Source: a virus
Taxonomy: Duplodnaviria; Caudoviricetes
DNA: 64,000 nucleotides
Virus record (IMG/VR): IMGVR_UViG_3300035670_000192
Span: 1,194 to 65,193 of that record
Reading direction: 5' to 3' (one strand)
In this document: positions 3,111-42,076 of the stretch, in pieces
Position numbering within the stretch: the stretch's first letter is position 1
How the letters are laid out: each line of letters opens with the position of its first letter
Position numbers and translations under genes: made by a program
The notes under the pieces: model-generated
The model's input: the letters and a program-made list of their open reading frames with translations, nothing else
What the model was told of the DNA's origin: nothing
Databases searched by the model: none

Positions 3111-3766
3111 AATTAGATAAGATACAGAAAAAAGTTGACGCCATTAGCCCATCTTGGGTGGGCGTCAAGTCTGTACCTGCTATCATTCGCAGTCTGAATA
3201 AAGCATTTGAAAAATCTATTCTTTACTTCACTTCTTCTCGTTATGATGAAGCCTATCTCCCAAACCACTCAGTTATTGTTTCAGGGCAGTATTGTCCTCG
3301 AATCTTTTCGACGATTCCTGAGAACATATTGATCACTTTAAGTTTCCCTGTTGCGAATAAAAAGGTGGTCATTACTGAAAAGGAAGCCAAGAATCTGGCT
3401 ATTAAGGTCATTCGGGCGATTCACCATGAATATCGCCATAAACATCAACAGCGTGGTCGAGGCTATTCTTACACCAAACAGTATACGCCAAAACAGAAGA
3501 AAGACCGTATGAAGTTGATGTACTATGGTAACCCAGACGAGATCGACGCTCATGCTTATGAAACTCAAGCCGAGCGTCTGAATATAAATAACCTTCGTAA
3601 GGCGCATAAGATCAATTGGACCGAATGCGAGTCAATCTATATGTACCGACTACATTTTCGGAAATCCGATCCGAAGATATGGAAACGGTTTCTTAAGAAG
3701 GTTTACAAACTCAATGTTGAAGTACAAGCAATACCTAAAAGAACAGGAAACAAAAAGTCACATTGA
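3107..3766 (+). CDS. Putative zincin metallopeptidase
   Basis: HEYRH (HExxH) with a downstream EIDAHA. Confidence 0.55.
   Translation: MKLDKIQKKVDAISPSWVGVKSVPAIIRSLNKAFEKSILYFTSSRYDEAYLPNHSVIVSGQYCPRIFSTIPENILITLSFPVANKKVVITEKEAKNLAIKVIRAIHHEYRHKHQQRGRGYSYTKQYTPKQKKDRMKLMYYGNPDEIDAHAYETQAERLNINNLRKAHKINWTECESIYMYRLHFRKSDPKIWKRFLKKVYKLNVEVQAIPKRTGNKKSH
3583..3590 (+). promoter_or_regulatory. T4-type late promoter TATAAATA
   Basis: Exact consensus, about 125 nt upstream of the 3714 gene; it lies inside a CDS. Confidence 0.5.
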
Positions 3767-4097
3767 CGACTTTATGGATTACTGTAGGGATTATCTAAAT
3801 GTAAGTGAAATGCCTGAACTGGTATTGATTCCTGATAAGGCTATTGCTGCTGAGAACAAGAGTTTTGGTGGGTATTCTCCGAGCGAGAAAAAAATCTATT
3901 TGAATACAGGTGGTAGACATACTGCTGATGTTCTCAGGACTCTAGCCCATGAAATGGTACATCATAAACAGAATTTAGATGGTGTACTTACCAACTATGC
4001 TGGTGAAACTGGCAGCGAATTTGAGAACGAAGCAAATAGCGTTGCTGGTATTATTATGAGAAACTATGGTAAACAAAATCCAAGAATTTACGAATAA
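3714..4097 (+). CDS. Small zincin metallopeptidase with a capsid-targeting-like leader
   Basis: RTLAHEMVH…ENEAN motif; N-terminus MLKYKQYLKE resembles the T4 IP leader MKTYQEFIAE. Confidence 0.65.
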   Translation: MLKYKQYLKEQETKSHIDDFMDYCRDYLNVSEMPELVLIPDKAIAAENKSFGGYSPSEKKIYLNTGGRHTADVLRTLAHEMVHHKQNLDGVLTNYAGETGSEFENEANSVAGIIMRNYGKQNPRIYE

Positions 4098-5237: not shown

Positions 5238-6185
5238 ATGACAACATTTGTGACTGGTGGTTTGGGATTTATCGGTTCCAATTTTGTAATCGCTCACCTT
5301 AAAAAGCATCCCTCAGACGAAATCGTCGTTATCGACAATAACTCTTATGCCGCAAATGCCAGTAATCTAGATGGTTATTGGGAAGATTGGCGTTTGTCGA
5401 ACAAGCACATCGACATTAGAAACTACGAAGAATTGGATTTACTCTATAACCGTTATGAACCGCATATTACTTATCATTTTGCTGCTGAATCTCATGTGGA
5501 TAATTCCATTCGTGGTGATGATATTTTCGTCGATACAAATATTATCGGAACTCATAATATTCTAAAATGTATTAAGAAGTATGGCGGTAAACTCGTACAT
5601 ATTTCAACCGACGAAGTTTATGGTAGTCTGTCTCACGAAGATCCTCCATTTTCAGAAACGACTCCATACAATCCTCGCAATCCGTATTCTGCGACCAAAG
5701 CCGCCAGCGATCATCTTGTTCGCTCATATGTGAATACGCATAACATTGAAGCGATTGTGACTAACTGTTCAAATAACTACGGTCCTCGTCAACATCATGA
5801 GAAGTTCATTCCGACTGTAATTCGTCATATTAGAAACAATACTCCTGTTCCCGTTTATGGTACAGGCGAAAACGTTCGTGATTGGTTGTATGTTGAAGAT
5901 CATTGTGAGGCTTTATTGGAAATTGGTCAACACTTTAAGTCAGGTGAACGATACAATATTGGTGGTGGTCATGAAGTAAGCAATCTTGAAATGGTTGCTA
6001 TGATTTTAGACATTATGGGTAAGCCAATTAATATGTACCAATCATGGATCAATTTCGTAAATGATCGTAAGGGTCATGATTTTAGATATGCAATGAACGC
6101 TGAGAAGATTCAAAAGGAACTTGGTTGGTCGGCAAAAACAGATATTATTGTTGGTCTTGAAAAAACATTGGAGTGGTATAAATGA
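5238..6185 (+). CDS. rmlB: dTDP-glucose 4,6-dehydratase
   Basis: TGGLGFIG, HFAAESHVDNSI, STDEVYG, PYSATK, SNNYGP and GHDFRY motifs. Confidence 0.96.
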   Translation: MTTFVTGGLGFIGSNFVIAHLKKHPSDEIVVIDNNSYAANASNLDGYWEDWRLSNKHIDIRNYEELDLLYNRYEPHITYHFAAESHVDNSIRGDDIFVDTNIIGTHNILKCIKKYGGKLVHISTDEVYGSLSHEDPPFSETTPYNPRNPYSATKAASDHLVRSYVNTHNIEAIVTNCSNNYGPRQHHEKFIPTVIRHIRNNTPVPVYGTGENVRDWLYVEDHCEALLEIGQHFKSGERYNIGGGHEVSNLEMVAMILDIMGKPINMYQSWINFVNDRKGHDFRYAMNAEKIQKELGWSAKTDIIVGLEKTLEWYK

Positions 6186-7060
6186 GAAAGGGAATAATTT
6201 TATCTGGTGGCATGGGCACTCGTTTGTATCCATGCACTGAAGTGACATCAAAGCAATTGTTGCCTGTTTACGACAAGCCACTTGTTTACTATCCACTCAC
6301 TACACTAATGCTTGCTGGTATTCGCGATATTATGATTATCAATTCGCCAAATGATGCTGAACAGTTTAAGCGTTTGTTGAAAGATGGATCACAATGGGGT
6401 TTGCATATTTCATATGCAATTCAACAAGAGCCAAAAGGAATTGCTGAGTGTTTTCGCATTGCTGAAAAGTGGATTGGTAAAGATGATGTTGCTTTAATTC
6501 TTGGCGATAACATTTTCTACGGAAATGATTTAATCAATCGTTTCAATTATGCCAAGAACAATACAGGCTGCACTTTGTTTGCATATCATGTACAGGATCC
6601 AGAACGTTTTGGTGTTCTTGAAGTGAATGAACATGGCGATCCAGTGGCTATTTTAGAAAAACCAAAAGTTGCTCCAACAAACTATGCTGTGACTGGTTTA
6701 TATTTCTACGACAATAATGTTGTAGACTATGCTTGGCAAATCGCTCCTTCTGCTCGTGGTGAACTTGAAATCACCGATATTAATAATATCTACATGAAGG
6801 ATCATAACTGTAAGGTAGAATACTTGAATCGCGGTATTGCCTGGATTGATACAGGCACTTTTGAATCTCTTGCTGAAGCATCGACATTCGTTGGATCAAT
6901 TCAAAGAAGAACTGGCACAATGATTGCATGTCCAGAAGAAATTGCTTATCGTAATGCTTGGATTACACAGCATCAGTTATCAAATGCTGCTAGAAAGTAT
7001 TCAAAATCGGATTACGGTAAGTATCTCGATAAAATCATATCTATGGGTCGTTATAGTTGA
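6182..7060 (+). CDS. rmlA: Glucose-1-phosphate thymidylyltransferase
   Basis: GIILSGGMGTRLYP, SKQLLPVYDKP, LGDNIF, SARGELEITD and WIDTGT motifs. Confidence 0.96.
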   Translation: MRKGIILSGGMGTRLYPCTEVTSKQLLPVYDKPLVYYPLTTLMLAGIRDIMIINSPNDAEQFKRLLKDGSQWGLHISYAIQQEPKGIAECFRIAEKWIGKDDVALILGDNIFYGNDLINRFNYAKNNTGCTLFAYHVQDPERFGVLEVNEHGDPVAILEKPKVAPTNYAVTGLYFYDNNVVDYAWQIAPSARGELEITDINNIYMKDHNCKVEYLNRGIAWIDTGTFESLAEASTFVGSIQRRTGTMIACPEEIAYRNAWITQHQLSNAARKYSKSDYGKYLDKIISMGRYS

Positions 7061-7068
7061 GGTGTAAA

Positions 7069-7845
7069 ATGAAAATTCTAGTTGTTGGTCGTGGATGGAC
7101 AGGTAAAAAGGTTTTTAATGAACTCGTAAAGCGAGGTCATATTGTAACTTATTGTAGTCATGATGATGCTATTGAAGAGGCTACTGACGGTGGATATCAG
7201 TGGGTGGTCAATTGCGCAGGCATGACTGGTTCGCCGAACGTCGATGCTTGCGAATTGCAGCGCGAAGAAACGGCAGAAGCAAATGCTATTTTCCCAGCGT
7301 TACTTCTTGATGCATGTAATCGCGGCTGGGCGAAGTTGGCTCATTTTTCGAGTGGTTGTATCTATCAGGGCGAGATCACTCATGTAAACGATGACCCAAA
7401 CTATTTCGGTAGCATTTATTCAGTTACCAAGGGAGTTTCAGATCTTTACTTGAAGGATCGTGCTCTTGTGTTCCGCATTCGTATGCCTTTCACTGGGTTG
7501 AACGAAAAGAAGAATTATCTAACAAAGGTAATGAACTACGCCAAGAACGGTAAGTTAATCGACTCAGGTCAAAACTCACTTACAGATCTTGATGAAGCCG
7601 TTCGTGTTGCCTGTGATCTTATCGAAAAGGGCGAAATGGGTCCTGTAAATCTCGTTAACGAAGGTTCGGTCAATATGCACGAACTCGTTGAATTGATGGG
7701 ATTGGATAACGTTCAATGGTTCACTGAGGAAGAATTCAAAGCCGCTACGTTGGCTTCGCGTTCAACCTGCACAATTCCAGCCCACCCTGCAATGCGTCCA
7801 GTGCGTGAAGCATTGGCTGAAGCAATTGCCAAGATGAAGCAGTAA
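7069..7845 (+). CDS. NDP-4-keto-6-deoxyglucose 3,5-epimerase/4-reductase (NRS/ER, UER1-like; RmlD superfamily)
   Basis: GxGWxG, NCAGMTGSPNVDACE, SSGCIY, YSVTK and RIRMP motifs. Confidence 0.8.
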   Translation: MKILVVGRGWTGKKVFNELVKRGHIVTYCSHDDAIEEATDGGYQWVVNCAGMTGSPNVDACELQREETAEANAIFPALLLDACNRGWAKLAHFSSGCIYQGEITHVNDDPNYFGSIYSVTKGVSDLYLKDRALVFRIRMPFTGLNEKKNYLTKVMNYAKNGKLIDSGQNSLTDLDEAVRVACDLIEKGEMGPVNLVNEGSVNMHELVELMGLDNVQWFTEEEFKAATLASRSTCTIPAHPAMRPVREALAEAIAKMKQ

Positions 7846-7900: not shown

Positions 7901-9073
7901 ATGTTATCCTTTAGAAATTATTATTTAACAGAAGAAATTGAACCCGTTAAGCATCTAAAGCATTTAACGCACGCAGAGGATAATTTCATTCACGGTGGAG
8001 AAACTGGTTTTCACCACACGGTTGATGCTCTTTCGGCAGTTAATGACAAACTGCACGGTCATTTCAATACTACAAAAGTGACGACCAAGTACGACGGATC
8101 CCCTTCTCTCGTATTTGGTCGTCATCCACAAACAGGTAAGTTTTTCGTAGCCAGCAAGTCTGCCTTTAATGTAAACCCTAAAATTAATTACAGTGAAGCC
8201 GATATTGAAAAGAATCACGGTCACGCTCCAGGCTTGGTAGAAAAACTTAAAACCGCACTACGCCATCTCCCTAAAGTCGCCCCAAAACACGGCGTTTATC
8301 AAGGTGACATTATGTACACCAAAGGTGACGTGGCTAAAAAGAGTGGAAAGTACCATTTCACTCCAAACACGATCACTTATTCTACTCCTATAGACTCAGA
8401 ACACGGTCAAAAGATAGCCAAGGCTCATATCGGCTTGGTTGTACATACCAAATATCATGGCTCAGATTTGAGCAACATGACCGCTGGATTCGACGTCGAT
8501 CATGATAGATTTGGCTCTCATTCAGATGTCCATCTAATTCATCCAGGCGTTAAACCAGTAGAGCATTCCGAAAAGAATAAAAAAGAATTCAATACCTATC
8601 TTGGGGCAGCAATTCGCCATCATCAGGCGTCTCACCCAGAGATGTACCACGTGGTTCGTTCACATGGAGAGAACTTCGACCGTTATATCAATCATACTGT
8701 TCGCGAAGGTACTAAACCGAACGTCGAAGGCTATCGTGCCTTTGTTTCTAACCGTTTCGAGAATGAAATCGAGAAGAAAAAGACTCAAAAGGGTAAATTA
8801 AAGCAACACGAAGCCCTTAATGCATTTAATAATGATGTAAATCGCAATCATACTCATCTATCTCAAGCATTTAAGATTCACCACGCCATTCAAAAGGCAA
8901 AAAATGCTTTGATAAATACCTTATCTTCCTCTGCTGAATTTGAGCATCATATTGATGGTAAGGCTACCAAGCCTGAGGGGTTTGTAATGGTTCATAATGG
9001 TCACCCCACAAAATTAGTCGATCGCGCCGAGTTTGCGCGTCAAAATCTTCTAAAAGGAAGGAAGAATAAATAA
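7901..9073 (+). CDS. Conserved T4-like phage protein with ligase/nucleotidyltransferase-fold motifs (DUF6267-like)
   Basis: TKYDGSP (KxDG), YQGD, PEGFV and KLVDR motifs; leader MLSFRNYYLTEE. Confidence 0.7.
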   Translation: MLSFRNYYLTEEIEPVKHLKHLTHAEDNFIHGGETGFHHTVDALSAVNDKLHGHFNTTKVTTKYDGSPSLVFGRHPQTGKFFVASKSAFNVNPKINYSEADIEKNHGHAPGLVEKLKTALRHLPKVAPKHGVYQGDIMYTKGDVAKKSGKYHFTPNTITYSTPIDSEHGQKIAKAHIGLVVHTKYHGSDLSNMTAGFDVDHDRFGSHSDVHLIHPGVKPVEHSEKNKKEFNTYLGAAIRHHQASHPEMYHVVRSHGENFDRYINHTVREGTKPNVEGYRAFVSNRFENEIEKKKTQKGKLKQHEALNAFNNDVNRNHTHLSQAFKIHHAIQKAKNALINTLSSSAEFEHHIDGKATKPEGFVMVHNGHPTKLVDRAEFARQNLLKGRKNK

Positions 9074-9099
9074 TCTTATTGCCAACAGATGGTAAAAAT

Positions 9100-10554
9100 A
9101 TGAGTAAAGCAACAGTAGTATGGGGTCGTTTTAACCCTCCAACAGAAGAAGGTCACGGAAGAGTTGTCCATGGTGCGATAGAGCACGCCGAGAAAACAGG
9201 CGGGACACATTATATTTTCCCAACCCACACTCAAGATAGTCGCAGCAATCCTCTTTCTCATGGGGATAAAGTTCATGCACTTCGTAAACTATTTCCGAAG
9301 GCAAACGTCGTTTCACACCCAAAGATCCGTACTATTATTCATGCTATGCAGCATATGGAAAAGCAGGGTCACACTCACGTCACGATTCATGCTGGTTCGG
9401 ATCGTGTCGGTGAATATCAAGAGTTATTGAACAAGTATCGTGCAAAAGAATTCCCAAAAATTAAAAAGATAGAAGTCAAATCAGCAGGTCATCGCGATCC
9501 AGATTCAGAAGGAGAAGAAGGAGAATCTGCTTCTAAGCATCGAGCATTAGTTGCTGCTGGAAAAAGAGACGAATTTATTTCAAAATATAGCGACAAGAAA
9601 CTTGGCGCACATATACATGACAAGGTAAAAGCAGGCATGAGTAAACTAAAAGAAAGTTATAAAGCAATTTTCCTTGTTGGTGGACCAGGAAGCGGTAAAG
9701 ATTTTCTTATTCATTCAGTGTTCAATGAGCACAATTTAATTGAATTAAGTCTCGATAAATTAAACAAAGCAATTCTTGAACAAAAGAATCTTCTTGAACT
9801 TGAAGATTATCCATCTGTAATTATTAACGGCACTGCTGAGAATAAAGAAAAGATTATCGTTTCAAAAGCAATTCTTGAAACCATGGGTTATGATACAGCC
9901 ATGGTGTTCGTCTATACTTCAGATGAAGTTTCTCGCAATCGTAACAACTTCCGTCTTACAAAAGGTTCAAAGACCTTCAATGAAGAAGTTCGTTCACAAC
10001 GTTATCAAACGTCAGTTGCAAATATGAATTTGTTCTTTGAACAATTCAAAACATTTTTCATTTACGACAATTCAGAAAATATTATTATTGCTGAAGAAAC
10101 TCGTAAGAGTGAAATTGCAGGTTGGTTAAGAGAACTGTCAGAAGGCGTTGAGCGTTTTCTTGACGAAAGAGTATTGGAAGCAGGCACGGATGATGCTGCT
10201 AATTTCATTAAACATTTAACACCAGGACAAGTGACAAATGATGTTAAAAATTATTCAGAAGCTGAAAAAGTCGCTGATGAAGATAAAAAGAAAGGCGTTC
10301 GAAGAAAAGAACAGAATCCATTGGAAGGATATTCGGGAGATGCAAGAGGGGGCGGCATTGCCGTTGCCAGATCTGCTGAGCCGACCATCGGCGAAGAAGA
10401 AAATAAGAAGCCTAAGAAAAAGAAGTTAAAAGATTTAACTCCTGTTTCTGTCGCAAAGTCTGGAATGAGCAGTTACTTTGATGGAAGAATGGGTGCTGTG
10501 CCTACAGGCGGTATTGGTTTAACATCGACAGCGGTTCAAGAAGAAACAAAATGA
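9100..10554 (+). CDS. Cytidylyltransferase-like (HIGH fold) domain fused to a P-loop kinase domain
   Basis: GRFNPPTEEGH, NPLS, AGSDR, SAGHRDPD and SASK motifs; then LVGGPGSGKD, IINGT and MVFVYT…RNRN. Confidence 0.8.
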   Translation: MSKATVVWGRFNPPTEEGHGRVVHGAIEHAEKTGGTHYIFPTHTQDSRSNPLSHGDKVHALRKLFPKANVVSHPKIRTIIHAMQHMEKQGHTHVTIHAGSDRVGEYQELLNKYRAKEFPKIKKIEVKSAGHRDPDSEGEEGESASKHRALVAAGKRDEFISKYSDKKLGAHIHDKVKAGMSKLKESYKAIFLVGGPGSGKDFLIHSVFNEHNLIELSLDKLNKAILEQKNLLELEDYPSVIINGTAENKEKIIVSKAILETMGYDTAMVFVYTSDEVSRNRNNFRLTKGSKTFNEEVRSQRYQTSVANMNLFFEQFKTFFIYDNSENIIIAEETRKSEIAGWLRELSEGVERFLDERVLEAGTDDAANFIKHLTPGQVTNDVKNYSEAEKVADEDKKKGVRRKEQNPLEGYSGDARGGGIAVARSAEPTIGEEENKKPKKKKLKDLTPVSVAKSGMSSYFDGRMGAVPTGGIGLTSTAVQEETK

Positions 10555-12629
10555 AAAAGTTTCCTTCGGTAACGAAAGATAAAGAATCAGGGCTACCTAA
10601 AAAGTATGTGGCTGGTCTTAGCACATCCACAGCAAAGGCTCGCGCTGCTCATTGGAAAAAGATGAGCAAATATTCAGATAAAGATCCAAGAGCATACAAA
10701 CCTGCTCCTGGTGATGCAACTGCAAAAACAAAACCAAGCAAATACACTAAACGTTTTCATAAAATGTTTGGTGAGGAAATTGGTATTGTAATTGAAGGTG
10801 CGCCAGAAAAGATTGAAGGAACAAACTGCGCTAACTGTATTCATTGGGTAAAAGAATCAGAAAAGCCAGTAGACAAGAGTGAACTAAACGAGTTTGGTGG
10901 ATTGAAAGCACCAAACGAAGCCTATGTTGAAATGGCAAAGCATGTTGACTTGGTAACATTACCAGGAAAGGCTAATGTAAAGATTAAAGCCTATTGTAAT
11001 CATGAAGATATTCATGATTTCGTAACTGAAAGAATGTGCTGCGCATATTGGGACAATGAAGATGCTAAGAGAGAGTTTAAAGGCGTAAGTCCAAAGATGG
11101 ATGAGTCAATTGTAAAAGTTGATGGTAAGTTTCGTCTTGTTTCGAAAAAGACAGGGCGCAATCTTGGCACATACGATACAAAAGCTGGCGCAATGAAAAG
11201 AGAAAGACAAGTACAGTATTTTAAGAGTTTGGGAGAAACAATGAAAAACGAAAGTAGAATCGCAGGTGTGTTGGCTGCAATGAATAAAGCTCGCCCTGAA
11301 CCAAAAGTTGGAGATCGCGTCATAACAATTCAAGGCGGTCAAAATACTGGCACTGTAGAAAAAATCAAAGATAATCATGTCTATTTCCGCAGCGACCACA
11401 GTCGACCTTCTCTTGGTGGCGGTTCACACAAGCCACTTTATAAGACTCATATCAGCAATGTTCGTTTGCACGAAGGATTTGATCCTTCTCCTTCAGATAT
11501 TGCTAAGATGCTTGTTAAAAAACATGGCGCTGGTAATGTCACAAAGAAACACATTAGCGATTTAGAATCAGATCGTGATTCACACAAAGGTTTGGATCAT
11601 GATGAAATCATGAAGCATGTCAAGAAAATGGAAGAAGCAGTTTCTTTCGGTCGCTCTGGTGGCGTAATGCACTACAATCCAAAAACTGAAAAGTCAGAGA
11701 AAGATGGTACTGCGAAATTATACGATCCAGAAAAGCACGACAAAAAATTCTCACCTAAAGGTGGATTTGCAGTAAAGAAACGAATGGATGAAGAAAGCGA
11801 ACTCGATGAAGCCCAAAAGAAACTCAAGCCATCATATTGGCGCGCAGAGTGGCGTTTGGGCACACAAACAGAAGTTGATAAGAACAACAAAAAGATCTAC
11901 GACAAACTTGCAAAAACAGATCCTGCTAAAGCAAAAGCATTTCATAATAATCTCATGAAATTGCGTAAGGAAGAAGTTGAGCAAACTCGCGAAGGTTTCT
12001 TAGATTTCGTAAAGAAAAAGAAGCCTGTAAATAAACCAAAAGCAACTGGTGCTGAGATGCGCGCTTTCTTCTCTAATTTGGAAAGAAAAACAAAGGTAGC
12101 AAAACCACAACAACGTGGTAGTGTTTATCACGTTCATCAAGTAGCCACTGAAGAAGTTAGCCTCGACGAACGAATTGACGTTAACAAGCAGAAGAAAAAT
12201 GCTGTATTGCGTCAAGCTGGCGTTAATGCTGCAATCGGCGGCAAGGTTCCTTTCGCTGGATCTGCCCTTCAAATGGGTCGTAAGGCTGCTAAGAAACTAC
12301 CTTCAAAAACTCTAGCAAAATCATATCGAGAATTGCCAAGAGTCGCTGAAGAAGCAATCGAAGAAGGTAAAGCCGACACTTCCTTGGCTGCAAAAGCCAA
12401 GAAGTCTGGCGTCTCTCTCGGAACACTTCGTAAAGTATATAACCGTGGAGTTGCTGCTTGGAATTCGGGTCACCGTCCAGGTACGACACCACAACAATGG
12501 GGTCATGCTCGTGTAAATTCGTATATTACGAAGGGTAAAACATACCACACAGCAGATAAGGATTTGCGTCGTGAATCAGTAGATTTCAACGAAGCATTTA
12601 AAGAAGAATTTAATGATGAGATTGAGTGA
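10551..12629 (+). CDS. Modular basic polyprotein-like protein (DUF5824-like termini, Cys cluster, KOW/SH3-like module); putative internal head protein
   Basis: KKSGVSLGTLRKVYNRGVAAW…QQWGHARVNSY at the C-terminus; CANC…C…CC; PKVGDRV; modules separated by hxE/EE linkers. Confidence 0.55.
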   Translation: MKKFPSVTKDKESGLPKKYVAGLSTSTAKARAAHWKKMSKYSDKDPRAYKPAPGDATAKTKPSKYTKRFHKMFGEEIGIVIEGAPEKIEGTNCANCIHWVKESEKPVDKSELNEFGGLKAPNEAYVEMAKHVDLVTLPGKANVKIKAYCNHEDIHDFVTERMCCAYWDNEDAKREFKGVSPKMDESIVKVDGKFRLVSKKTGRNLGTYDTKAGAMKRERQVQYFKSLGETMKNESRIAGVLAAMNKARPEPKVGDRVITIQGGQNTGTVEKIKDNHVYFRSDHSRPSLGGGSHKPLYKTHISNVRLHEGFDPSPSDIAKMLVKKHGAGNVTKKHISDLESDRDSHKGLDHDEIMKHVKKMEEAVSFGRSGGVMHYNPKTEKSEKDGTAKLYDPEKHDKKFSPKGGFAVKKRMDEESELDEAQKKLKPSYWRAEWRLGTQTEVDKNNKKIYDKLAKTDPAKAKAFHNNLMKLRKEEVEQTREGFLDFVKKKKPVNKPKATGAEMRAFFSNLERKTKVAKPQQRGSVYHVHQVATEEVSLDERIDVNKQKKNAVLRQAGVNAAIGGKVPFAGSALQMGRKAAKKLPSKTLAKSYRELPRVAEEAIEEGKADTSLAAKAKKSGVSLGTLRKVYNRGVAAWNSGHRPGTTPQQWGHARVNSYITKGKTYHTADKDLRRESVDFNEAFKEEFNDEIE

Positions 12630-12631
12630 CA

Positions 12632-12639
12632 AATAAATA
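12632..12639 (+). promoter_or_regulatory. Late promoter variant AATAAATA
   Basis: Intergenic, upstream of the AGGAG RBS of dps. Confidence 0.55.
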
Positions 12640-12665
12640 ATAGAACCTAACCAGGAGTAAATTTC

Positions 12666-13199
12666 ATGTTCATTAAAGACAAATCACTATTATCAGTAGC
12701 CGATGCAGCAAAGTCTGTTATGGCTACAAAACTTAAAGAAGATGTAGAAGTGCAAAAGGCAGGTCTTGTCACAATGGCTGACAAGGCTTTAAACGACGTT
12801 TATGGCGTTTATTTGAAGGCTCATACCTATCATTTGAATGTCGACGGCGCAAACTTCCCACAATACCACAAACTTTTCAAGAAAGTTTATGAGGGTTTGT
12901 ACGAGTCAGTAGATGGTCACGCTGAGCATATTCGTATCCTAGGTGGATATGTAATGCTTTCACCAGCAACGCTTGCTCGCAAGTCTTCAATCGTAGAAGA
13001 TACTTCTACAATGCTTGCACCACGCGAAATGCTTTTAAATTTAAACAATGAGATGTCGAAACTCATTCGTGAGATGAAAACACTTTACGCTGCTGCTGAA
13101 GCTGCTAACGAAATCGGATTCTCAAACTTCTTGCAAGCCAAGATTGAAGAATTCGGTAAACTTAACTGGATGGTTGCCACAACGCTCAAAGGCGTTTGA
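12666..13199 (+). CDS. dps: Dps-family ferritin-like DNA-protection protein
   Basis: HTYHLNVDGANFPQYHKLF…DGHAEHIRILGG ferroxidase motif; C-terminal KLNWM. Confidence 0.88.
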   Translation: MFIKDKSLLSVADAAKSVMATKLKEDVEVQKAGLVTMADKALNDVYGVYLKAHTYHLNVDGANFPQYHKLFKKVYEGLYESVDGHAEHIRILGGYVMLSPATLARKSSIVEDTSTMLAPREMLLNLNNEMSKLIREMKTLYAAAEAANEIGFSNFLQAKIEEFGKLNWMVATTLKGV

Positions 13200-13217
13200 T
13201 TTACTGAGGATATTCGC

Positions 13218-13940
13218 ATGAACGAAATTAACGAAAATGCTGCTTGGCATAAGGTCTTTACTTCTGGTTCCGAGGCGCTCAAGAGCAAGTTGAAGAAAAC
13301 TCATGCGAAAAATCCAAAGTTCCAGGAATTTCTAAAGAGCATTGGTCATGAGGGTGCACAAAAGAGCGTCGCTCAAGCCAAGAAAGACGTTGGTCAAATC
13401 AACAAAGCAAAAGCAAAGGCTGCAGCTCCAAAACCTGTTGATCGTACGGAACTCATTAAACGTGCGGCAGAAAAACGTGCAGCAAGAACACAAGTTGCTA
13501 AGCACCGTGCTGCTTGGGGCGGCGAAGTTCCTGGTGCAGAGTATGATAATCCAATTTCAATGGCTCGTGCGGGTCATACAATTAAGGGTTATCGTTTGGG
13601 TGAAGATGCAACTCAAACTGATGAAGCATTGCTACCAAAACAGCAGAAAGTTCGTCAAGATTTAATCGACAAAGAGATGGCTGAAAAGAAAGCAAAGCGT
13701 CAGGCTGGCACAGCATATGGTCATTACGCTTCACTTGCTCGCAAAATGCGTAAGATGCAGGAAGAAGTTGTCGTTGTTGATGAAGCAACAAAACAAGAAG
13801 CAGAAAAAGTTCTTGGTGGCTCTGTCAAAACACGAACAGGAAATGAACCAAAAGGTAAGCATCCACTAGGTTATCGCGATGCTCGTCGTTTAGCAAGAGC
13901 AAAACTAAAACAATTATTAACTCAAAGAAAAGGTAAGTAA
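13218..13940 (+). CDS. Basic modular hypothetical protein (putative internal head protein)
   Basis: Lys/Ala/Arg-rich blocks separated by INE, LGE, TDE and MQEEVVVVDE. Confidence 0.5.
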   Translation: MNEINENAAWHKVFTSGSEALKSKLKKTHAKNPKFQEFLKSIGHEGAQKSVAQAKKDVGQINKAKAKAAAPKPVDRTELIKRAAEKRAARTQVAKHRAAWGGEVPGAEYDNPISMARAGHTIKGYRLGEDATQTDEALLPKQQKVRQDLIDKEMAEKKAKRQAGTAYGHYASLARKMRKMQEEVVVVDEATKQEAEKVLGGSVKTRTGNEPKGKHPLGYRDARRLARAKLKQLLTQRKGK

Positions 13941-13941
13941 A

Positions 13942-15237
13942 ATGAGTGACTATAAAGATATTTTCGCCAATCTTCTCGTCAAGACACACTTCACAGAAGA
14001 AAAAGACGAGCGCGAATACGACTACGAAGGCGACATGGCAAAGTCGCAATTAAAGAGCATCATCACAAATGCTCAGAAGTTGCACGACATGCTTGACGAC
14101 TCAACAAACTTACCTGAGTGGGTTCAAAGCAAGATTACTCTTGCTGAAGACTATGTTCTTACTGCCGCCAATTATATGGAAGGCGAGTTAGACGAAGAAT
14201 ACGAAATTGACGAAGAAAAAATGACAGACGCTCAAATGAAGCGTCGCGAAGAACTCGTCAAGGGTATGAAATCTGCAGACTGGGAAAAGCGTTATCCAGG
14301 TCGCGGTAAAGAAGTAATGTACGCCACTGCCACAAAGATGGCAATGAAAGAAGATCTAGATGAAGAAGTTGAGCAGATTGATGAACTCAAGAAATCAACA
14401 TTGGCTTCTTATGTCAACAAAGCAGCAAATCAAGTGCGCGCAAAATCAGGAATTGCTGCCAGTTTTGAAACGCAAGGCGCAAGAAAAAGAAATCCTGAAA
14501 ATAAAACAGCATATTGGGATGTAGCACAAGACTATAGAAAGGGTGCTAGAAAACGTCTTACTGGTATTGAAAAGGCAACTGCTAAACTAGCCAAAGAAGA
14601 AGTTGAAACAGTTGAAGAAGGTGCGGCTGATTGGAAAAAAGCCTTTGATAAAAAATCAAAGTCGAATCTTCAAAAAGATACTTGGGGAATGAAATTAGCC
14701 AGCAAACACACTCTAATGTCAAAGAGCCATTTTGACAATAAAGATGATGTTAAACATGCAGTTGACCAAATCAAACGCGATAAAACCATAAAGATGGATG
14801 AAGATGTTCGTTACTTCTCAGGTACAACAGTTAGCGGTAAGCCATGGAAGTTCATTCCACCAGGTGAACCAAAGATGTTGAGCCCAGAGTTCGTAAAGGA
14901 TCGCGTACCAACTCTTACAGACAAAGAAGCCCATGAAGTTGCTGTTGTCGCAAAAGATCAGTATAACGACGTCGAAAAGAAGTTTGCTGAAATGAGCGAA
15001 GCAAAGGGTGGTACAGTACCAAAGACAGCAAGAGAAAAAGATCTTGCTGCAAAGGCTCATCCAAAGCATTTGATTACACGCAAAGACGTTCTTCACGCTC
15101 GTGGCGTTAAACTCGGCGAAGAAGAATTGCGCGAGAAGATGCGCGAAAAGATGTTTGCTGGTAAGACAATGACCAAGAAGCAAGCCGATCCAGTTGTATT
15201 TCACCCAATGGGCAAAAAGAAACAACCACAAAAATGA
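13942..15237 (+). CDS. Modular hypothetical protein (putative internal head protein)
   Basis: EYDYEGDMAKSQL…LPEWVQSKIT, YATATKMAM and EQIDELKKSTLASY modules with acidic linkers. Confidence 0.55.
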   Translation: MSDYKDIFANLLVKTHFTEEKDEREYDYEGDMAKSQLKSIITNAQKLHDMLDDSTNLPEWVQSKITLAEDYVLTAANYMEGELDEEYEIDEEKMTDAQMKRREELVKGMKSADWEKRYPGRGKEVMYATATKMAMKEDLDEEVEQIDELKKSTLASYVNKAANQVRAKSGIAASFETQGARKRNPENKTAYWDVAQDYRKGARKRLTGIEKATAKLAKEEVETVEEGAADWKKAFDKKSKSNLQKDTWGMKLASKHTLMSKSHFDNKDDVKHAVDQIKRDKTIKMDEDVRYFSGTTVSGKPWKFIPPGEPKMLSPEFVKDRVPTLTDKEAHEVAVVAKDQYNDVEKKFAEMSEAKGGTVPKTAREKDLAAKAHPKHLITRKDVLHARGVKLGEEELREKMREKMFAGKTMTKKQADPVVFHPMGKKKQPQK

Positions 15238-15629
15238 CTAAAGAACTTGAAAAATTAAATACTGATCTAGATTTATTTCTAGCAAAGCCATTTTTAGATC
15301 TTGGCACAGCGTATAGCGTTCTTGCTATGACGCTGGGTCAAAATGGTCTTGTTTTGCCAGTCATAAACATGAAAGAAGATGATGAGTTTTTGTTTGAACT
15401 GAAAGATGGTTCAAACGATTATACAGGACATTATTTGTATATTACATACGATCTTACCCCGCAAGGATATGACGTTTATGCGAATGTTGTCGATGAAGAT
15501 GAATTAGATTATCTCGGTGTGGATGATGAAGAGTTGGAAGAAGTAGAATCTGAGGATGAAAATCCAACAGATTATGGTGTCTCGCAATTTCTATTACGCA
15601 CGAGAAGAACAGACGATACCAGTTGGTAA
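15234..15629 (+). CDS. Acidic hypothetical protein
   Basis: ORF translationally coupled to its neighbours. Confidence 0.6.
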   Translation: MTKELEKLNTDLDLFLAKPFLDLGTAYSVLAMTLGQNGLVLPVINMKEDDEFLFELKDGSNDYTGHYLYITYDLTPQGYDVYANVVDEDELDYLGVDDEELEEVESEDENPTDYGVSQFLLRTRRTDDTSW

Positions 15630-15634
15630 TTCGT

Positions 15635-16024
15635 ATGTTTGAAAATTTGAATGATGAAAACTTTTTATTATATGCTGTAAAATGTTATAGCAAACCAAAT
15701 GCTGTGATGAGCGAGTTTGAAGATGATTTAAATCGCATACAGTATATAAAAAGATTAATTACAAAATATCGAGATTCTGGTGAATTTAAAGGTCGTTTGA
15801 TTTTAAATCATATCACCGTTTTATATAATGTTTTTGGCGTTGAAGGTGCGACTCGAATATTATTTTATAAGTTAGAAGAAAAAGACTACGAAATAATTAA
15901 ACCATTTCTAGTTTTTTTAAATTATATGCCAGAAATTGTTTTTGGTATTCGCGGTAAAAATTTACGGTCAAGCGATATTGGTCTAGACCAGGAAGCAGTA
16001 AAATGTCTAAGAGAGTTAAAGTAA
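15635..16024 (+). CDS. Conserved T4-like phage hypothetical protein
   Basis: LNDENFLLYA…RLILNHITVLYNVFG…KPFLVFLNYMP pattern. Confidence 0.75.
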   Translation: MFENLNDENFLLYAVKCYSKPNAVMSEFEDDLNRIQYIKRLITKYRDSGEFKGRLILNHITVLYNVFGVEGATRILFYKLEEKDYEIIKPFLVFLNYMPEIVFGIRGKNLRSSDIGLDQEAVKCLRELK

Positions 16025-16161
16025 AAGAGGAAGCACCAGCAGTTTCAATTGCAGCAGGTGGCGTACCGTCTCTCACAAATCCATCAGATGTTTATGCGCT
16101 TCAATTGAAAAATAGAATTAAGAAAAAGGTGCTCAAAAGAAAGCCACCCAAATTTATGTAA
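16003..16161 (+). CDS. 52-aa basic protein (not in the ORF track)
   Basis: MSKRVKVKEEAPAVSIAAGG…KRKPPKFM; fills the gap before 16173. Confidence 0.6.
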   Translation: MSKRVKVKEEAPAVSIAAGGVPSLTNPSDVYALQLKNRIKKKVLKRKPPKFM

Positions 16162-16791: not shown

Positions 16792-17961
16792 ATGAGTTTG
16801 AAATCATTGCAACAAAAGATTGGCGTTACAGCAGACGGTTTGTGGGGACCAGGAACTCTACGCGCTGCAGCAGCCTATTATAAATTATCTCCTGCTCGCG
16901 CTGCTCATTTCTTTGGGCAAACTGCACATGAGACTGGCGGTTTCAAAGCATTTAGCGAAAATCTAAATTATTCTGCAAAGGGTTTAGTTGGCGTATTTAA
17001 AAAATACTTTCCAAATGAAGCAGTTGCGAAAAGATACGAAAGAAACCCTCAAGCAATTGCAAATCGCGTTTATGCAAATCGTATGGGCAATGGAGATGAG
17101 GCTTCTGGTGACGGTTGGAAGTTTCGCGGTCGTGGTGCATTACAATTAACAGGCAGAACAAACTATGAAACGTTTGCTGCCTATTGTAACCGCCCAGATG
17201 TGATGACCAATCCTGATTTGGTTGCTACTGAGTTAGCATTCGAATCAGCAATGTTTTTCTTCGAAAGAAATCGACTATGGAGCATATGCGATCAAGGAGT
17301 GAATGATGCTTCGATATTATCCCTTACTAAGAAAGTTAATGGTGGTACTCACGGCTTGGAAGATCGCAAGACTAAGACGAAAACGTACTTCAGTCAATTA
17401 AGCGCACCTGCTGGTGCAGCACCACCAAAAGTTGCTGCACCTGTTTCTGCCGCTGCACCTGCCGCTCCTGCAGGAAAAGTAAATCCTGAGATGCAATTGT
17501 CTGAACACTTTAATTTAAAAGAGTTCACTAAATCTGAAACTGCAACTCGTAAACGTATTGATAATACACCTAATGCTGCTCATGCTGAGAATCTAAAAAA
17601 TGTTTGTGAAAAAATACTTGAACCAGTTCGTCGTCATTTTGGTAAGCCTGTTCGTATTAACAGTGGCTATCGCGGTCCCGCTCTCAATGCCGCTGTGGGC
17701 GGATCAAGCAAGTCTCAACACTGTAATGGCGAAGCCGTAGATTTTGAGATTGACGGTTTACCGAATCCAGATCTAGCAAAATGGGTTGCTGAGAATTGCG
17801 AGTTCGATCAGATTATTCTAGAATTCTATGATCCAAAAGAAGGACCAAACTCAGGTTGGGTTCATGCTTCTATTAAAAGAGATGGGAATAATCGCAAACA
17901 AAAAATGACTGCAGTTACAGTCAATGGAAAAACAGTTTATAAACCAGGGTTTGTAGTTTAA
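16792..17961 (+). CDS. Endolysin: PG-binding segment + GH19 glycosidase + peptidase M15
   Basis: ADGLWGPGT; HETGGF, ENLNYS, FRGRGALQLTGRTNY (GH19); Ala/Pro linker; INSGYR, SQH…AVD, WVHAS (M15). Confidence 0.9.
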   Translation: MSLKSLQQKIGVTADGLWGPGTLRAAAAYYKLSPARAAHFFGQTAHETGGFKAFSENLNYSAKGLVGVFKKYFPNEAVAKRYERNPQAIANRVYANRMGNGDEASGDGWKFRGRGALQLTGRTNYETFAAYCNRPDVMTNPDLVATELAFESAMFFFERNRLWSICDQGVNDASILSLTKKVNGGTHGLEDRKTKTKTYFSQLSAPAGAAPPKVAAPVSAAAPAAPAGKVNPEMQLSEHFNLKEFTKSETATRKRIDNTPNAAHAENLKNVCEKILEPVRRHFGKPVRINSGYRGPALNAAVGGSSKSQHCNGEAVDFEIDGLPNPDLAKWVAENCEFDQIILEFYDPKEGPNSGWVHASIKRDGNNRKQKMTAVTVNGKTVYKPGFVV

Positions 17962-18528: not shown

Positions 18529-20193
18529 ATGGGTTTTAAGACCGCCTCCTTTGTCAGCATTTCAAATATTGGATTAAATCCAACAATCAGTGTCGCTAAC
18601 ACTCGCAGACTCAATAATCCAATTTGGAATTTTAAAAAAACAATCATTGTAACATTCAAGCAATCTGGCGAATGGGTATGCCCAGAAGGTGTCAGTGAAG
18701 TTGAGTATCTCGTTGTCGCTGGCGGTGCTGGCGGTGGTGGAGATGCTGGCGGTGGTGGTGGTGCTGGTGGTTTTAGAACAGGCACTGGATTATCAGTCAC
18801 AGCAGGTCAAACATACACTATTACAGTCGGTAGTGGTGGTAGCTCTTCTAGAGGATCACAAGGTTCGAATGGAACAAGCAGTATATTTTCAACAATAACT
18901 GCTGCTGGTGGTGGCGGTGGTGGAGTGTTCATAGGTAATGGGAGCAGTGGTGGTTCTGGTGGTGGGGCTGGTGCTGGTCCTGTTGGAACATCAAGAACTG
19001 GTGGTTCGGGAAATACACCATCAACTTCTCCATCACAGGGTAATAATGGCGGAAATAGTCCAGCGCATCGAGCAATGGGTGGTGGAGGAGGAGCAGGCGC
19101 AGCTGGTGCAAATGGTGTTGATGGATCGCCATATGGCGGTGATGGCGGTAACGGCACTGCGTCGACAATTTCAGGAACATCCGTAACTTATGGTGGCGGC
19201 GGTGGTGGCGGCGGTGGTGTATTCACACCACTACTTGGTGGAGGTGGACTTGGAGGATCAGGTGGCGGTGGAAGAGGTCAAAATAACACCACAGAAGCAG
19301 TCGCAGGTACAACAAATACTGGTGGCGGCGGTGGTGGCGCAGGAATCAATAATTTTGATTTAGCAACTCCTAAAAATGGTGGCTCTGGTATTGTCATTAT
19401 CAAATATCAAATGCCACCAACAGGCGCACAAGTATTCAATTCAACGACAGATTGGGTATGTCCAGAAGGTGTCACTTCTGTTGATTATCTTGTCGTTGCT
19501 GGTGGCGGCGGTGGTGGTAAAGGTTATGCTGGCGGTGGTGGTGCAGGTGGCTATCGCACAGGCACTGGACTTGCAGTTACAGCAGGTCAAACATATACAA
19601 TCACAGTCGGTGGTGGCGGATCGGGTGGATCTGGACCATCTGTAGCAATTGGCACAACAGGTAGCAACTCAACATTTAGCACTATCACATCAAATGGTGG
19701 TGGTGGAGGCGGTGGTCCTGCTGCAGGAGCCAGTGGCGGTTCTGGCGGTGGTGGTAGTGGCGAAGTAAATGGTAATGCTAGCACTGCGTTTCCTGGCGGT
19801 AGTGGTAACACACCATCAACATCTCCATCACAAGGTAACGACGGCGGCACTGGTTCAAGATCTCCAAGTAGTGCTGCTGGTGGAGGTGGCGGAGGTGCTG
19901 GCGCAGTTGGTTCGAACGGTAACTCTGGCGTTAATGGTGGTAATGGCGGTGATGGTTCCGCTTCAACACTTTCTGGATCATCAGTGACTTATGCTGGTGG
20001 TGGTGGTGGTTCTGCATTTGCTTCACCAAATACACCAGGAAATGGTGGCACAGGCGGTGGTGGTAATGCGGTTCACGGTCAAAGTCCAGCTTCTGGTGCA
20101 TCAGGCACTGCCAATCTTGGTGGCGGTGGCGGCGGCGGTGGTAGTGGCGGTGGTGCAGGTGGCTCTGGTGTCGTCATTCTCAAATTAAACTAA
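18529..20193 (+). CDS. Glycine-rich fibre/adhesin with two tandem Gly-rich domains
   Basis: Two copies of WVCPEGV..V.YLVVAGG…GGSG.VI. Confidence 0.75.
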   Translation: MGFKTASFVSISNIGLNPTISVANTRRLNNPIWNFKKTIIVTFKQSGEWVCPEGVSEVEYLVVAGGAGGGGDAGGGGGAGGFRTGTGLSVTAGQTYTITVGSGGSSSRGSQGSNGTSSIFSTITAAGGGGGGVFIGNGSSGGSGGGAGAGPVGTSRTGGSGNTPSTSPSQGNNGGNSPAHRAMGGGGGAGAAGANGVDGSPYGGDGGNGTASTISGTSVTYGGGGGGGGGVFTPLLGGGGLGGSGGGGRGQNNTTEAVAGTTNTGGGGGGAGINNFDLATPKNGGSGIVIIKYQMPPTGAQVFNSTTDWVCPEGVTSVDYLVVAGGGGGGKGYAGGGGAGGYRTGTGLAVTAGQTYTITVGGGGSGGSGPSVAIGTTGSNSTFSTITSNGGGGGGGPAAGASGGSGGGGSGEVNGNASTAFPGGSGNTPSTSPSQGNDGGTGSRSPSSAAGGGGGGAGAVGSNGNSGVNGGNGGDGSASTLSGSSVTYAGGGGGSAFASPNTPGNGGTGGGGNAVHGQSPASGASGTANLGGGGGGGGSGGGAGGSGVVILKLN

Positions 20194-20211
20194 AAGGTAA
20201 AGGTAAATTAA

Positions 20212-20772: not shown

Positions 20773-20784
20773 AGGATTCTGTAG

Positions 20785-21765: not shown

Positions 21766-21785
21766 TTTTTAGGAAATTAAATTAA

Positions 21786-41659: not shown

Positions 41660-41918
41660 AGTTGGATTAAGTTATTTTGCTCATCTCATTCGAGCGTGGA
41701 AATGGGCTTTTATGTTATTAGTGCACGGTTTATTTCCAAATATTTGGAAAACGGCAGTGAGCGATCAATTGTGTGCGCACAAAGAATTAGATAGAGCAAC
41801 TAGAAATTACATCTTAAAAAAGATGTATGACATTGACGAAAACAAAATGCCTAGTATTTGGGAACGCGCGAGCGATCGTGAACTAGTTGTAAGAAAAATA
41901 CTTTCATCGAAAGATTGA
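41643..41918 (+). CDS. Hypothetical protein (DUF6356-like)
   Basis: HL.EVG.SY..H…LVHGLFP pattern. Confidence 0.55.
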   Translation: MSHLNEVGLSYFAHLIRAWKWAFMLLVHGLFPNIWKTAVSDQLCAHKELDRATRNYILKKMYDIDENKMPSIWERASDRELVVRKILSSKD

Positions 41919-42076
41919 TGAAATCTTTCAAAACCTATATACATGATGCATGGAGCATGAAGTATAAAAAGAAGATTGATTGCTCCAACCCTAAAGGATT
42001 TTCACAAAAAGCACACTGCCGCGCTCGAACACTTCGACGCGCAGGAGTCATTACAAAGAGTACACCAGTAAAATGA
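41918..42076 (+). CDS. 52-aa basic protein with a capsid-targeting-like leader (not in the ORF track)
   Basis: MKSFKTYIHD-AWSMKYKKKIDCSNPKGFSQKAHC; coupled on both sides. Confidence 0.7.
   Translation: MKSFKTYIHDAWSMKYKKKIDCSNPKGFSQKAHCRARTLRRAGVITKSTPVK

Follow-up and report, generated by a model that had tools for sequence, protein, structure and literature searches.

The 64,000-nucleotide window considered here, that is, the whole stretch of viral DNA that was analysed, covers positions 1,194 to 65,193 of IMG/VR record IMGVR_UViG_3300035670_000192, and its genes are named below by the positions at which they start. Its subject is a block of genes at 7901-16161, which opens with a protein of the DUF6267 family (7901) and includes a cytidylyltransferase-kinase (9100) and three lysine-rich mosaic proteins (10551, 13218 and 13942). 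The block most probably represents a T4-style locus for internal head proteins, carried by an aquatic T4-like phage. The more specific reading, namely that the phage is a T4-like (Kyanoviridae-type) myovirus, that its internal head proteins are encoded here and that the mosaic proteins are probably cut at acidic linkers, is given a probability of about 0.55. The evidence comes from the conservation and clustering of a short N-terminal leader, the enrichment of an acidic linker, the exchange of modules at that linker and a ligase-like fold, together with the detection of homologs in the virions of two cyanophages, which is taken from papers.

During prohead assembly, the leader would dock the 7901, 3714 and 41918 proteins onto the scaffolding core, and a gp21-type prohead protease, encoded outside this fragment, would remove it after Glu. 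The mosaic proteins would share the head compartment. Their E-E-V-E-x-[LIV]-[DE]-E junctions conform to the [LI]-x-E rule, and the proteins would probably be cut there, giving pieces some 50-145 residues long; the cytidylyltransferase-kinase may travel and be cut likewise. At infection, the matured cargo and the DNA would leave together. We infer targeting, cleavage and injection, as well as the effector roles that the cargo might have at the start of infection, in RNA repair or in nucleotide and nicotinamide adenine dinucleotide (NAD) metabolism. A sequence-only reading of this DNA had proposed that the phage packages enzymes and strings of small effector domains as polyproteins, cuts them in the head and injects them; its observation is partly confirmed and its interpretation partly supported and sharpened.

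The N-terminal leader and its T4 counterpart

Gene 7901 (7901..9073, + strand) encodes a 390-residue protein that matches Pfam DUF6267 with an expectation value (E) of 4e-94 and begins with the leader MLSFRNYYLTE (7901..7933, + strand). The leader pattern is M-x-x-[FY]-x-x-[FY]-[LI]-x-E, with aromatic residues at positions 4 and 7, an aliphatic residue at 8 and Glu at 10; the 11-residue version of 7901 has one extra Tyr compared with the ten-residue form of relatives that are 94% identical. Residues M1 and E11 are invariant in the aligned homologs (15/15). Residues 1-19 of the AlphaFold model have a predicted local distance difference test score (pLDDT) below 50 and the model as a whole is confident, which places the leader outside the fold. 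In this phage the leader is found on two further proteins only. Gene 3714 (3714..4097, + strand), a metallopeptidase-like protein of 127 residues with an HExxH motif (HEMVHH), carries the canonical ten-residue leader MLKYKQYLKE, and its homolog in Synechococcus phage B23 starts MNYKQFLRE. Gene 41918 (41918..42076, + strand), a basic candidate open reading frame (ORF) of 52 residues that matches no PHROG family, starts MKSFKTYIHD, with Asp rather than Glu at position 10.

Judged by the DUF6267 protein, the closest cultured relatives are aquatic Kyanoviridae myoviruses of the T4-like kind (31-37% identity); they include the cyanophages P-RSM6, S-PM2 and S-SZBM1, phage C48C1, Pelagibacter phage HTVC008M and Methylophilales phage Melnitz. 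The comparison set consists of 26 related loci from viral contigs, cited by L numbers, and two annotated phages, in which 27 DUF6267 loci were counted. Scored by eye, 22 of these 27 begin with M-[LIK]-[STR]-[FL]-[KR]-x-[FY]-[LIV]-x-E; four of the other five have a different N-terminus ending in [IL]-x-E, and one is truncated by the end of its contig. In the window and the 27 loci the strict leader pattern has 56 coding-strand matches against 2 on the opposite strand. It is present on 66 of the 147 Met-starting DUF6267 representatives left after clustering at 50%, where 0.27 would be expected from shuffled N-termini. Among the 56 leaders of ten residues, F occupies position 4 in 55 and Glu position 10 in 54, and in every case position 7 is aromatic (F, Y or W) and position 8 aliphatic (L, I or V). 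Positions 4, 7, 8 and 10 are thus nearly invariant in residue class, while 2, 3, 5, 6 and 9 vary.

The leader also occurs on unrelated proteins of the block. For example, it heads six consecutive small genes of the block in L027 and four more block genes in C48C1, one of which is a 90-residue DUF5824 gene. In the whole C48C1 genome (156 kb), five of the six leader-matching coding-strand genes lie within 57.3-68.1 kb; the sixth match is an in-frame Met located 16 residues into a protein which we take to be UvsW-like. The cytidylyltransferases of L022, L025 and S-SZBM1 carry the strict leader and those of L019, L021, L023, L024 and L026 variant leaders, the N-termini being MKSFSQFLTE in P-SSM2, MKKFSAFLNE in S-SM1 and MRFRQFIIE in S-SZBM1.

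In T4 the leader is MKTYQEFIAE, which satisfies the pattern derived here, and published T4 genetics assigns residues 4 and 7 to targeting and residues 8 and 10 to processing. The positions conserved here are exactly these four. The resemblance to T4 claimed in the sequence-only reading, which had quoted the three leaders of the window exactly, therefore extends to every mapped targeting and processing position, and the 7901-type leader can be regarded with high confidence as a capsid-targeting sequence. In the literature searched, no link between the capsid-targeting sequence and cyanophage proteins was found. According to the same T4 genetics, Asp at position 10 keeps targeting and blocks processing. 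A sub-class of leaders ending in Asp, not Glu (MKSF[TA]QFLKD, MKSFKTYIHD), is seen at L014 13699, L016 5612, L017 7772, L018 10134 and at 41918 of the window.

The T4 internal head proteins share with the present system the ten-residue N-terminal leader pattern, which is found on 7901 (with its one-residue insertion) and 3714 and, with Asp at 10, on 41918. The putative cargo is likewise hypervariable, clustered and largely basic, and the lineage of this phage has gp21, gp22 and gp23 homologs, seen in relatives. However, T4 internal proteins are small and non-enzymatic, whereas the cargo here would comprise a 43-kDa ligase-like enzyme, a metallopeptidase-like protein and, in relatives, cytidylyltransferases; 41918 alone is small and basic, unlike 7901 and 3714. 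In addition, there is no sequence similarity beyond the leader, and the locus lies among replication genes.

A head-carried, protease-trimmed enzyme such as that proposed here is described in T4, where gp21 processes the head-packaged ADP-ribosyltransferase Alt, which is injected; its enzyme family and propeptides differ from those considered here, and no ADP-ribosyltransferase was found in this phage. In the giant phages phiKZ, 201phi2-1 and SPN3US, whose inner-body and ejection proteins offer another parallel, a T4-related prohead protease cuts many head proteins behind the Glu of a short motif, and their propeptides are thought to target them to the prohead. In contrast to the present case, the motifs of these phages are S/A/G-x-E, their propeptides often exceed 100 residues, and the accounts consulted describe neither an eight-residue acidic linker nor module shuffling.

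The protease context can be followed in relatives. Peptidase_S77 is present in four of five related records, and phrog_237 scaffolds in all four records looked at. In the gp23 homologs of four relatives, L-S-E, L-T-E, L-T-E and L-N-E stand just ahead of the conserved mature N-terminus, and the gp22 scaffolds of four relatives contain 11-17 [LI]-x-E sites.

Acidic linkers and module exchange in the mosaic proteins

Gene 10551 (10551..12629, + strand) encodes a protein of 692 residues, 15% of them lysine, with a C-terminal DUF5824 module at nucleotides 12366-12629 and strict acidic linkers at 11787-11810, 12150-12170 and 12348-12365 (+ strand). The lysine-rich 240-residue protein of 13218 (13218..13940, + strand) matches no Pfam or PHROG family; its single strict linker, EEVVVVDE (nucleotides 13761-13784), is followed by a TKQEAEK...LGG module common to other mosaic proteins. 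Gene 13942 (13942..15237, + strand) encodes 431 residues without a named family, with an acidic module at residues 25-82 and strict linkers at nucleotides 14191-14214, 14362-14385 and 14596-14619 (+ strand).

The junctions of these proteins are stereotyped and read E-E-V-E-x-[LIV]-[DE]-E. The strict pattern, [DE][DE]x(1-3)[LIVM][DE]E, was built from the comparison of 13942 with a relative after seeing the data and was therefore tested on independent relatives. Seven sites occur in 10551, 13218 and 13942, against about five in the other 17,300 residues of the window. The block proteins of the window and eight relatives contain 39 sites in 20,061 residues where 2.5 are expected, 31 of them in the relatives; outside the block, the 6 sites in 47,076 residues match the 5.4 expected. 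The consensus is K-E-E-V-E-[EQ]-[LIV]-D-E, and the next residue is mostly A, G or L, with I also frequent among the 119 homologs of 13942 listed. In these listed homologs a wider motif, in which T or N is also allowed before the final Glu, is found 486 times against 16 expected, with a median of 4 linkers per protein and a median segment of 84 residues. At 47 of 47 listed sites the last residues of the junction are [LIV]-[DE]-E, as the pattern itself dictates. This ending fits both the T4 [LI]-x-E rule and the L-x-E before mature gp23 of the four relatives, and may match the specificity of the clade's protease.

The sequence-only reading had placed the cuts at looser motifs, a hydrophobic residue followed by any residue and Glu (h-x-E). 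All 14 internal motifs that it quoted lie where it had put them, in 10551 (MFGEE 72, VIEG 80, MDES 183, LHEG 306, MEEA 360, ELDEA 417, SLDER 537 and IEEG 603), in 13942 (FTEE 17, EIDEE 88, EQIDEL 144, VEEG 224 and MDED 285) and in 9100 (KLKE). The supposed enrichment was not recovered, and this tells against cutting at such sites in general: in a test of 55 ORFs with 300 shuffles each, the generic [LIVMF]-x-E is at chance level, with 16 sites against 11.7 expected in 10551 (z 1.5), 15 against 9.9 in 13942 (z 2.0) and 16 against 11.4 in 9100 (z 1.7), and the unrelated RmlD-like enzyme 7057 reaches z 2.8. What survives of the claim is the much more specific acidic linker, enriched in independent relatives; the 10551 sites VIE|G, MDE|S, LHE|G and MEE|A exist but lack comparative support. 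The modules had also been called basic. When 10551, 13942 and 13218 are cut at the claimed sites, this is true of 9 of the 17 pieces (net charge of at least +4) and fails for others, such as piece 20-91 of 13942, with a net charge of -15.

Comparison of homologs, a check that had been suggested with the original claim, shows gain, loss and duplication of modules at the junctions, and also modules split off there as separate genes with a leader. In the homolog of 13942 from a 94%-related phage, the EIDE-EQIDE segment is swapped for a different module and the next module is duplicated, each junction reading E-E-x-[EQ]-x-[IV]-D-E. An alignment of 35 homologs shows 10551-, 13218- and 13942-type modules mixed within single proteins, with insertions, deletions and duplications bounded by the linker. 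Residues 13-76 and 603-680 of 10551 recur in other contexts in relatives. For example, a Cys-Trp module stands directly after the leader in L027, after F-K-D-M-F-G-E in Melnitz and after M-Y-D-E in C48C1, and the window's 10551 has the same K-M-F-G-E at residue 75. Similarly, the residues before DUF5824 are I-E-E in the window and L-E-E in C48C1, whose DUF5824 is the separate 90-residue gene with its own leader. Several modules in one frame thus occur separately or reordered elsewhere, as would be expected of a polyprotein. The ends of BLAST segments between 13942 and its 119 listed homologs are too noisy to mark boundaries: some fall at linkers (starts 85 and 141; end 226), and the commonest (271, 279 and 416) do not. 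On these comparisons the mosaic proteins appear hypervariable, polyprotein cutting is plausible, and confidence that they are cut at the acidic linkers is moderate to low.

An alternative that deserves serious attention, even if we consider it unlikely, is that the mosaic proteins are uncut repeat proteins, in which the linker is both the conserved start of a helical domain and a recombination-prone junction; such lysine-rich proteins would function intact, for instance by binding DNA or in a scaffold-like role. About 61% of the 486 linkers precede one repeat type, L-[SK]-K-x-T-L-x-S-Y, extended as L-[SK]-K-x-T-L-x-S-Y-[VI]-x-K-A, and part of the linker motif may for this reason be the start of a repeated domain. 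The model of 13942, which is poor (pLDDT 54), runs continuous helices through the linkers, and Pfam, run on 67 of the 120 mosaic homologs listed, identifies none of the modules and yields only six weak families with one to three members each. These points, which count against cutting, are met by others: the linker precedes at least 20 different, unrelated module types, linker-bounded modules are also found as separate genes with their own leader, and the last three linker residues always fit the aliphatic-x-Glu rule kept at the gp23 site of relatives. In addition, all five claimed sites of 13942 coincide with low-confidence dips of the model (15-26, 78-88, 139-151, 220-232 and 276-310).

A rather improbable view assigns the mosaic proteins to the scaffold or core, with gp22, gp67 and gp68 of T4 as models, and has them cut to peptides and expelled at head maturation instead of being kept and injected. 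The T4 core proteins are reported to be degraded in this manner, by multiple [LI]-x-E cuts that release small peptides. The linkers do resemble sites in the gp22 scaffolds of four relatives, which carry similar L-E-E sites and contain 6 strict linker-like sites where about 1.5 are expected, and an invariant acidic module, that of 13942, is present in all 35 aligned mosaic proteins. However, the mosaic proteins are lysine-rich, hypervariable, unlike scaffolds, and not homologous to phrog_237, and S-SZBM1_139, which shares the Cys-Trp module, is listed among the proteins of mature virions.

The acidic module of 13942 (residues 20-92, E-Y-D-Y-E-G-D ... P-E-W-V-Q-S-K) also exists as stand-alone viral proteins of 68-95 residues. 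A lead from the ESM Atlas, in which the acidic-module cluster is 95% HicA_toxin, was not confirmed by the Pfam scan of the 67 homologs. A database search with 13942 returned at least 3,961 proteins at E <=0.001, all unnamed.

The enzymes and the detection of homologs in virions

On its predicted structure, the 7901 protein appears to be an RNA-ligase-like covalent nucleotidyltransferase. Residues K63, D65 and G66 of its motif I (K-x-D-G) are invariant in 15 of 15 DUF6267 sequences. The model, with a mean pLDDT of 87, has the fold of an adenylyltransferase domain, and its best structural matches are RNA ligases: VIA-align gives Z 8.8 with 5cot_A (184 aligned residues, root-mean-square deviation 3.7) and Z 7.3 with 1s68 and 2hvq. 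By protein, the scores are Z 7.5 for Trl1, 7.3 for T4 Rnl2, 6.8 for Rnl1 and 5.5-6.4 for DNA ligases. Foldseek returned no match at E <=0.001, its best matches all being DNA ligases with E >=0.03, and a single-sequence search against solved chains found nothing significant. The likeness to RNA ligases (the Naegleria nick-sealing ligase, T4 Rnl2 and Trl1) thus consists of the adenylyltransferase fold and K-x-D-G. As in the ligase-kinase Trl1, DUF6267 is tied to a P-loop kinase, by neighbourhood or by fusion. It differs from RNA ligases in its moderate Z of 7-9, in lacking a sequence-level match to solved chains and in its large helical C-terminal half, and from the Trl1 arrangement in that the partner domain is cytidylyltransferase-like rather than a phosphatase or phosphodiesterase. 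The protein has a net charge of +13, and no paper naming DUF6267 was found in the literature searched.

Gene 9100 (9100..10554, + strand, with an alternative TTG start at 9079) encodes a cytidylyltransferase-like domain with a T-x-x-G-H motif, a P-loop kinase and a lysine-rich tail, without a leader. Its profile matches are phrog_395 (E 1.5e-35), phrog_3041 (E 1e-35), Zeta_toxin (E 6e-7) and AAA_33 (E 1e-4). Within the (H/T)-x-x-G-H signature, T15, G18 and H19 are invariant. Pfam PF01467 is not matched at E <=0.01 and is annotated on 6 of 120 homologs among the matches listed. Against solved chains, a single-sequence search gave nothing significant and a profile of 12 homologs gave weak matches (E 0.04-0.19), including pantetheine-phosphate adenylyltransferase (E 0.18). 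In the source databases the homologs are annotated as nicotinate-mononucleotide adenylyltransferase or dephospho-CoA kinase. The motif KLKE (nucleotides 9643-9654; KLKES at residue 189 of the 491-residue form, 9079/9100) indeed lies, as had been claimed, between the two domains, whose matches cover residues 7-196 (cytidylyltransferase) and run from 197 (P-loop kinase). Of the 119 homologs listed, 57 have an [LIVMF]-x-E counterpart no more than 22 residues from the P-loop. By sequence, 9100 falls in a large leaderless clade. With a HIGH-type nucleotidyltransferase and a P-loop kinase beside DUF6267 or fused to it, the enzymes could serve either in RNA-end repair or in NAD salvage of a NadR-like kind.

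A frameshift joining 7901 and 9100 was considered and rejected. The two genes are in different frames, with a stop and a gap of 5-26 nucleotides between them. Relatives with 94% (7901) and 98% (9100) identity, as well as a 50-member cluster, have the genes split in the same way; the split is therefore real.

Elsewhere these parts are joined. The family phrog_455 spans DUF6267 and the cytidylyltransferase, and phrog_3041 spans the cytidylyltransferase and DUF5824, which means that the parts are fused in other phages. DUF6267-cytidylyltransferase fusions of 628-704 residues occur in L008, L014 and L016-L018, and the 120 homologs listed include cytidylyltransferase-kinase-DUF5824 proteins of about 800 residues, in which a 10551-type protein is fused to the cytidylyltransferase-kinase. 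In the loci looked at, at least one member of each DUF6267/cytidylyltransferase pair has a leader. Since at least one partner is labelled and the partners form one polypeptide in some phages, they could possibly be co-packaged as a complex; a complex prediction for DUF6267 (residues 20-390) and the cytidylyltransferase domain (residues 1-195) had a score of 0.06 and a mark of 0.32.

The metallopeptidase-like protein 3714, which has a net charge of -4 and weak DUF6782 and phrog_87 matches, may belong with these enzymes. Gene 182 of Flavobacterium phage vB_FspM_immuto_3-5A (L056 4273-6996), annotated NadR, encodes 907 residues in which a nucleotidyltransferase-like N-terminus, a cytidylyltransferase-like segment and an HExxH module homologous to 3714 are fused. 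This fusion suggests a functional link between the HExxH protein and the cytidylyltransferase. Gene 182 has no leader and no acidic linkers.

Homologs of the block have been detected in virions of two cyanophages. The text and Table 3 of the S-CREM2 paper report the cytidylyltransferase ORF154 together with ORFs 155, 156 and 160 from its vicinity, and state that cytidyltransferases are frequently detected in cyanophage virions. The virion table of S-SZBM1 lists 140 (the cytidylyltransferase), 139 and 136, which map to the homologous block; the leader-bearing 140 is detected, and the leaderless DUF6267 gene 141 is absent from the main text and tables of that paper.

Several observations weigh against the internal-head-protein reading. 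The sequence-only reading had put the block forward as virion cargo; the leader in this phage is confined to 7901, 3714 and 41918, and 9100, 10551, 13218, 13942 and the ferritin-like gene 12666 lack a canonical one. The leader is on none of 118 close homologs of the cytidylyltransferase-kinase and none of 117 homologs of 13942, the mosaic proteins having other N-termini, and about one-third of the DUF6267 representatives start straight at the fold. The fused DUF6267-cytidylyltransferase proteins lack h-x-E at the junction, and the Flavobacterium phage, which belongs to another genus (Immutovirus), fuses the same enzyme modules without leaders or linkers. The block is embedded in replication genes (UvsX, DnaB-like helicase), away from the head module, and the window contains no prohead protease, scaffold or capsid gene, the 65-kb IMG/VR contig, of which it is nearly all, being about 37% complete. 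Finally, the S-CREM2 authors caution that abundant soluble proteins may co-purify with virions. It is nevertheless quite improbable that the block encodes cytoplasmic auxiliary enzymes (nicotinamide mononucleotide adenylyltransferase-like, kinase, ligase-like) and accessories that are never packaged, as its replication-gene neighbours, the many leaderless family members, the Flavobacterium fusions and the contamination caveat would allow, with virion detections in relatives as carry-over and an N-terminal motif serving another purpose, because the leader matches the mapped targeting and processing positions of T4, lies outside the 7901 fold and is on unrelated proteins only in and near the block, and because S-SZBM1 virions are reported with the leader-bearing enzyme and without its leaderless neighbour in the list.

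The T4 capsid-targeting sequence and the injected internal proteins form a classic system, which has also become a tool for packaging foreign proteins. If the internal-head-protein reading is true, the same label is carried by enzymes of myoviruses that are abundant in the ocean (the group of cyanophages, pelagiphages and Methylophilales phages), which would explain the recurrent cytidylyltransferases in cyanophage virion proteomes. It would also provide a simple sequence rule predicting virion cargo in thousands of uncultured genomes, and would turn a very large uncharacterised family, that of the at least 3,961 proteins, into candidate head cargo. A wider proposal, tentative and doubtful at this stage, is that a widespread group of aquatic T4-like phages pre-loads an RNA-ligase-like, nucleotidyltransferase and kinase set together with a combinatorial library of mini-proteins from mosaic polyproteins cut by the head protease, where the linker would also be a cassette boundary at which cargo modules can be shuffled and a leader on either enzyme partner would label both.

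Genomic setting and neighbouring genes

The long ORFs of the window are all on the + strand, and a near-identity DNA search of the block against the phage collection found no match. UvsX (283-1347) and a DnaB-like helicase (1725-3110) lie 5′ of the block, as do three enzymes of the sugar-nucleotide type (5238-7845); on the 3′ side are a two-domain endolysin and tail or baseplate-type proteins. The late-promoter cores that had been noted before the block hold up weakly. The exact core TATAAATA occurs three times on the + strand, never directly before 7901, and the relaxed nTAAATA is present before some genes; in a count without a shuffle control it occurs 21 times, 7 of them 22-44 nucleotides before gene starts, including 7857, 9066 and 12633.

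The other genes of the block are less closely tied to the proposed system. Gene 12666 (12666..13199, + strand) encodes a ferritin/Dps-like protein (PF00210, E 3.4e-16 over residues 40-175; phrog_3636) with homologs in the same block of L008, L011, L014, L017, L018, L025 and L028. Its N-terminal extension of about 30 residues, which contains K-L-K-E, is otherwise seen only in the near-identical L006 and L007. Gene 15234 (15234..15629, + strand) encodes an acidic protein of 131 residues with a net charge of -24 and no Pfam or PHROG family; among the related loci compared, homologs were found only in L006 and L007, and its membership of the system is uncertain. The DUF7207 protein of 15623 (15623..16024, + strand; Pfam E 9e-39) is a conserved right-hand neighbour of the block, with homologs 7-10 kb downstream of DUF6267 in L002, L003, L008, L011, L014, L023, L024 and L026 and others in L006 and L007.

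The three genes at 5238-7845, between the helicase region and the block, encode a dehydratase/epimerase, an NTP_transferase of the glucose-1-phosphate nucleotidyltransferase type and an RmlD-like reductase. The last of these (7057) is also present in loci L004-L007, and sugar-nucleotide genes were not seen in the annotations read for more distant relatives with the same synteny.

Further downstream, the endolysin at 16792-17961 combines an N-terminal GH19 chitinase-like half with a C-terminal Peptidase_M15 half. An 803-residue protein at 36237-38648 has a net charge of about -126, with 12% Glu and 1.7% Lys, and matches no Pfam or PHROG family. Five paralogues within 18529-22781 and 25135-28085, very low in charged residues (K, E and D at 1-2% each) and all matching the unnamed phrog_2295, are probably fibre or surface structural proteins.

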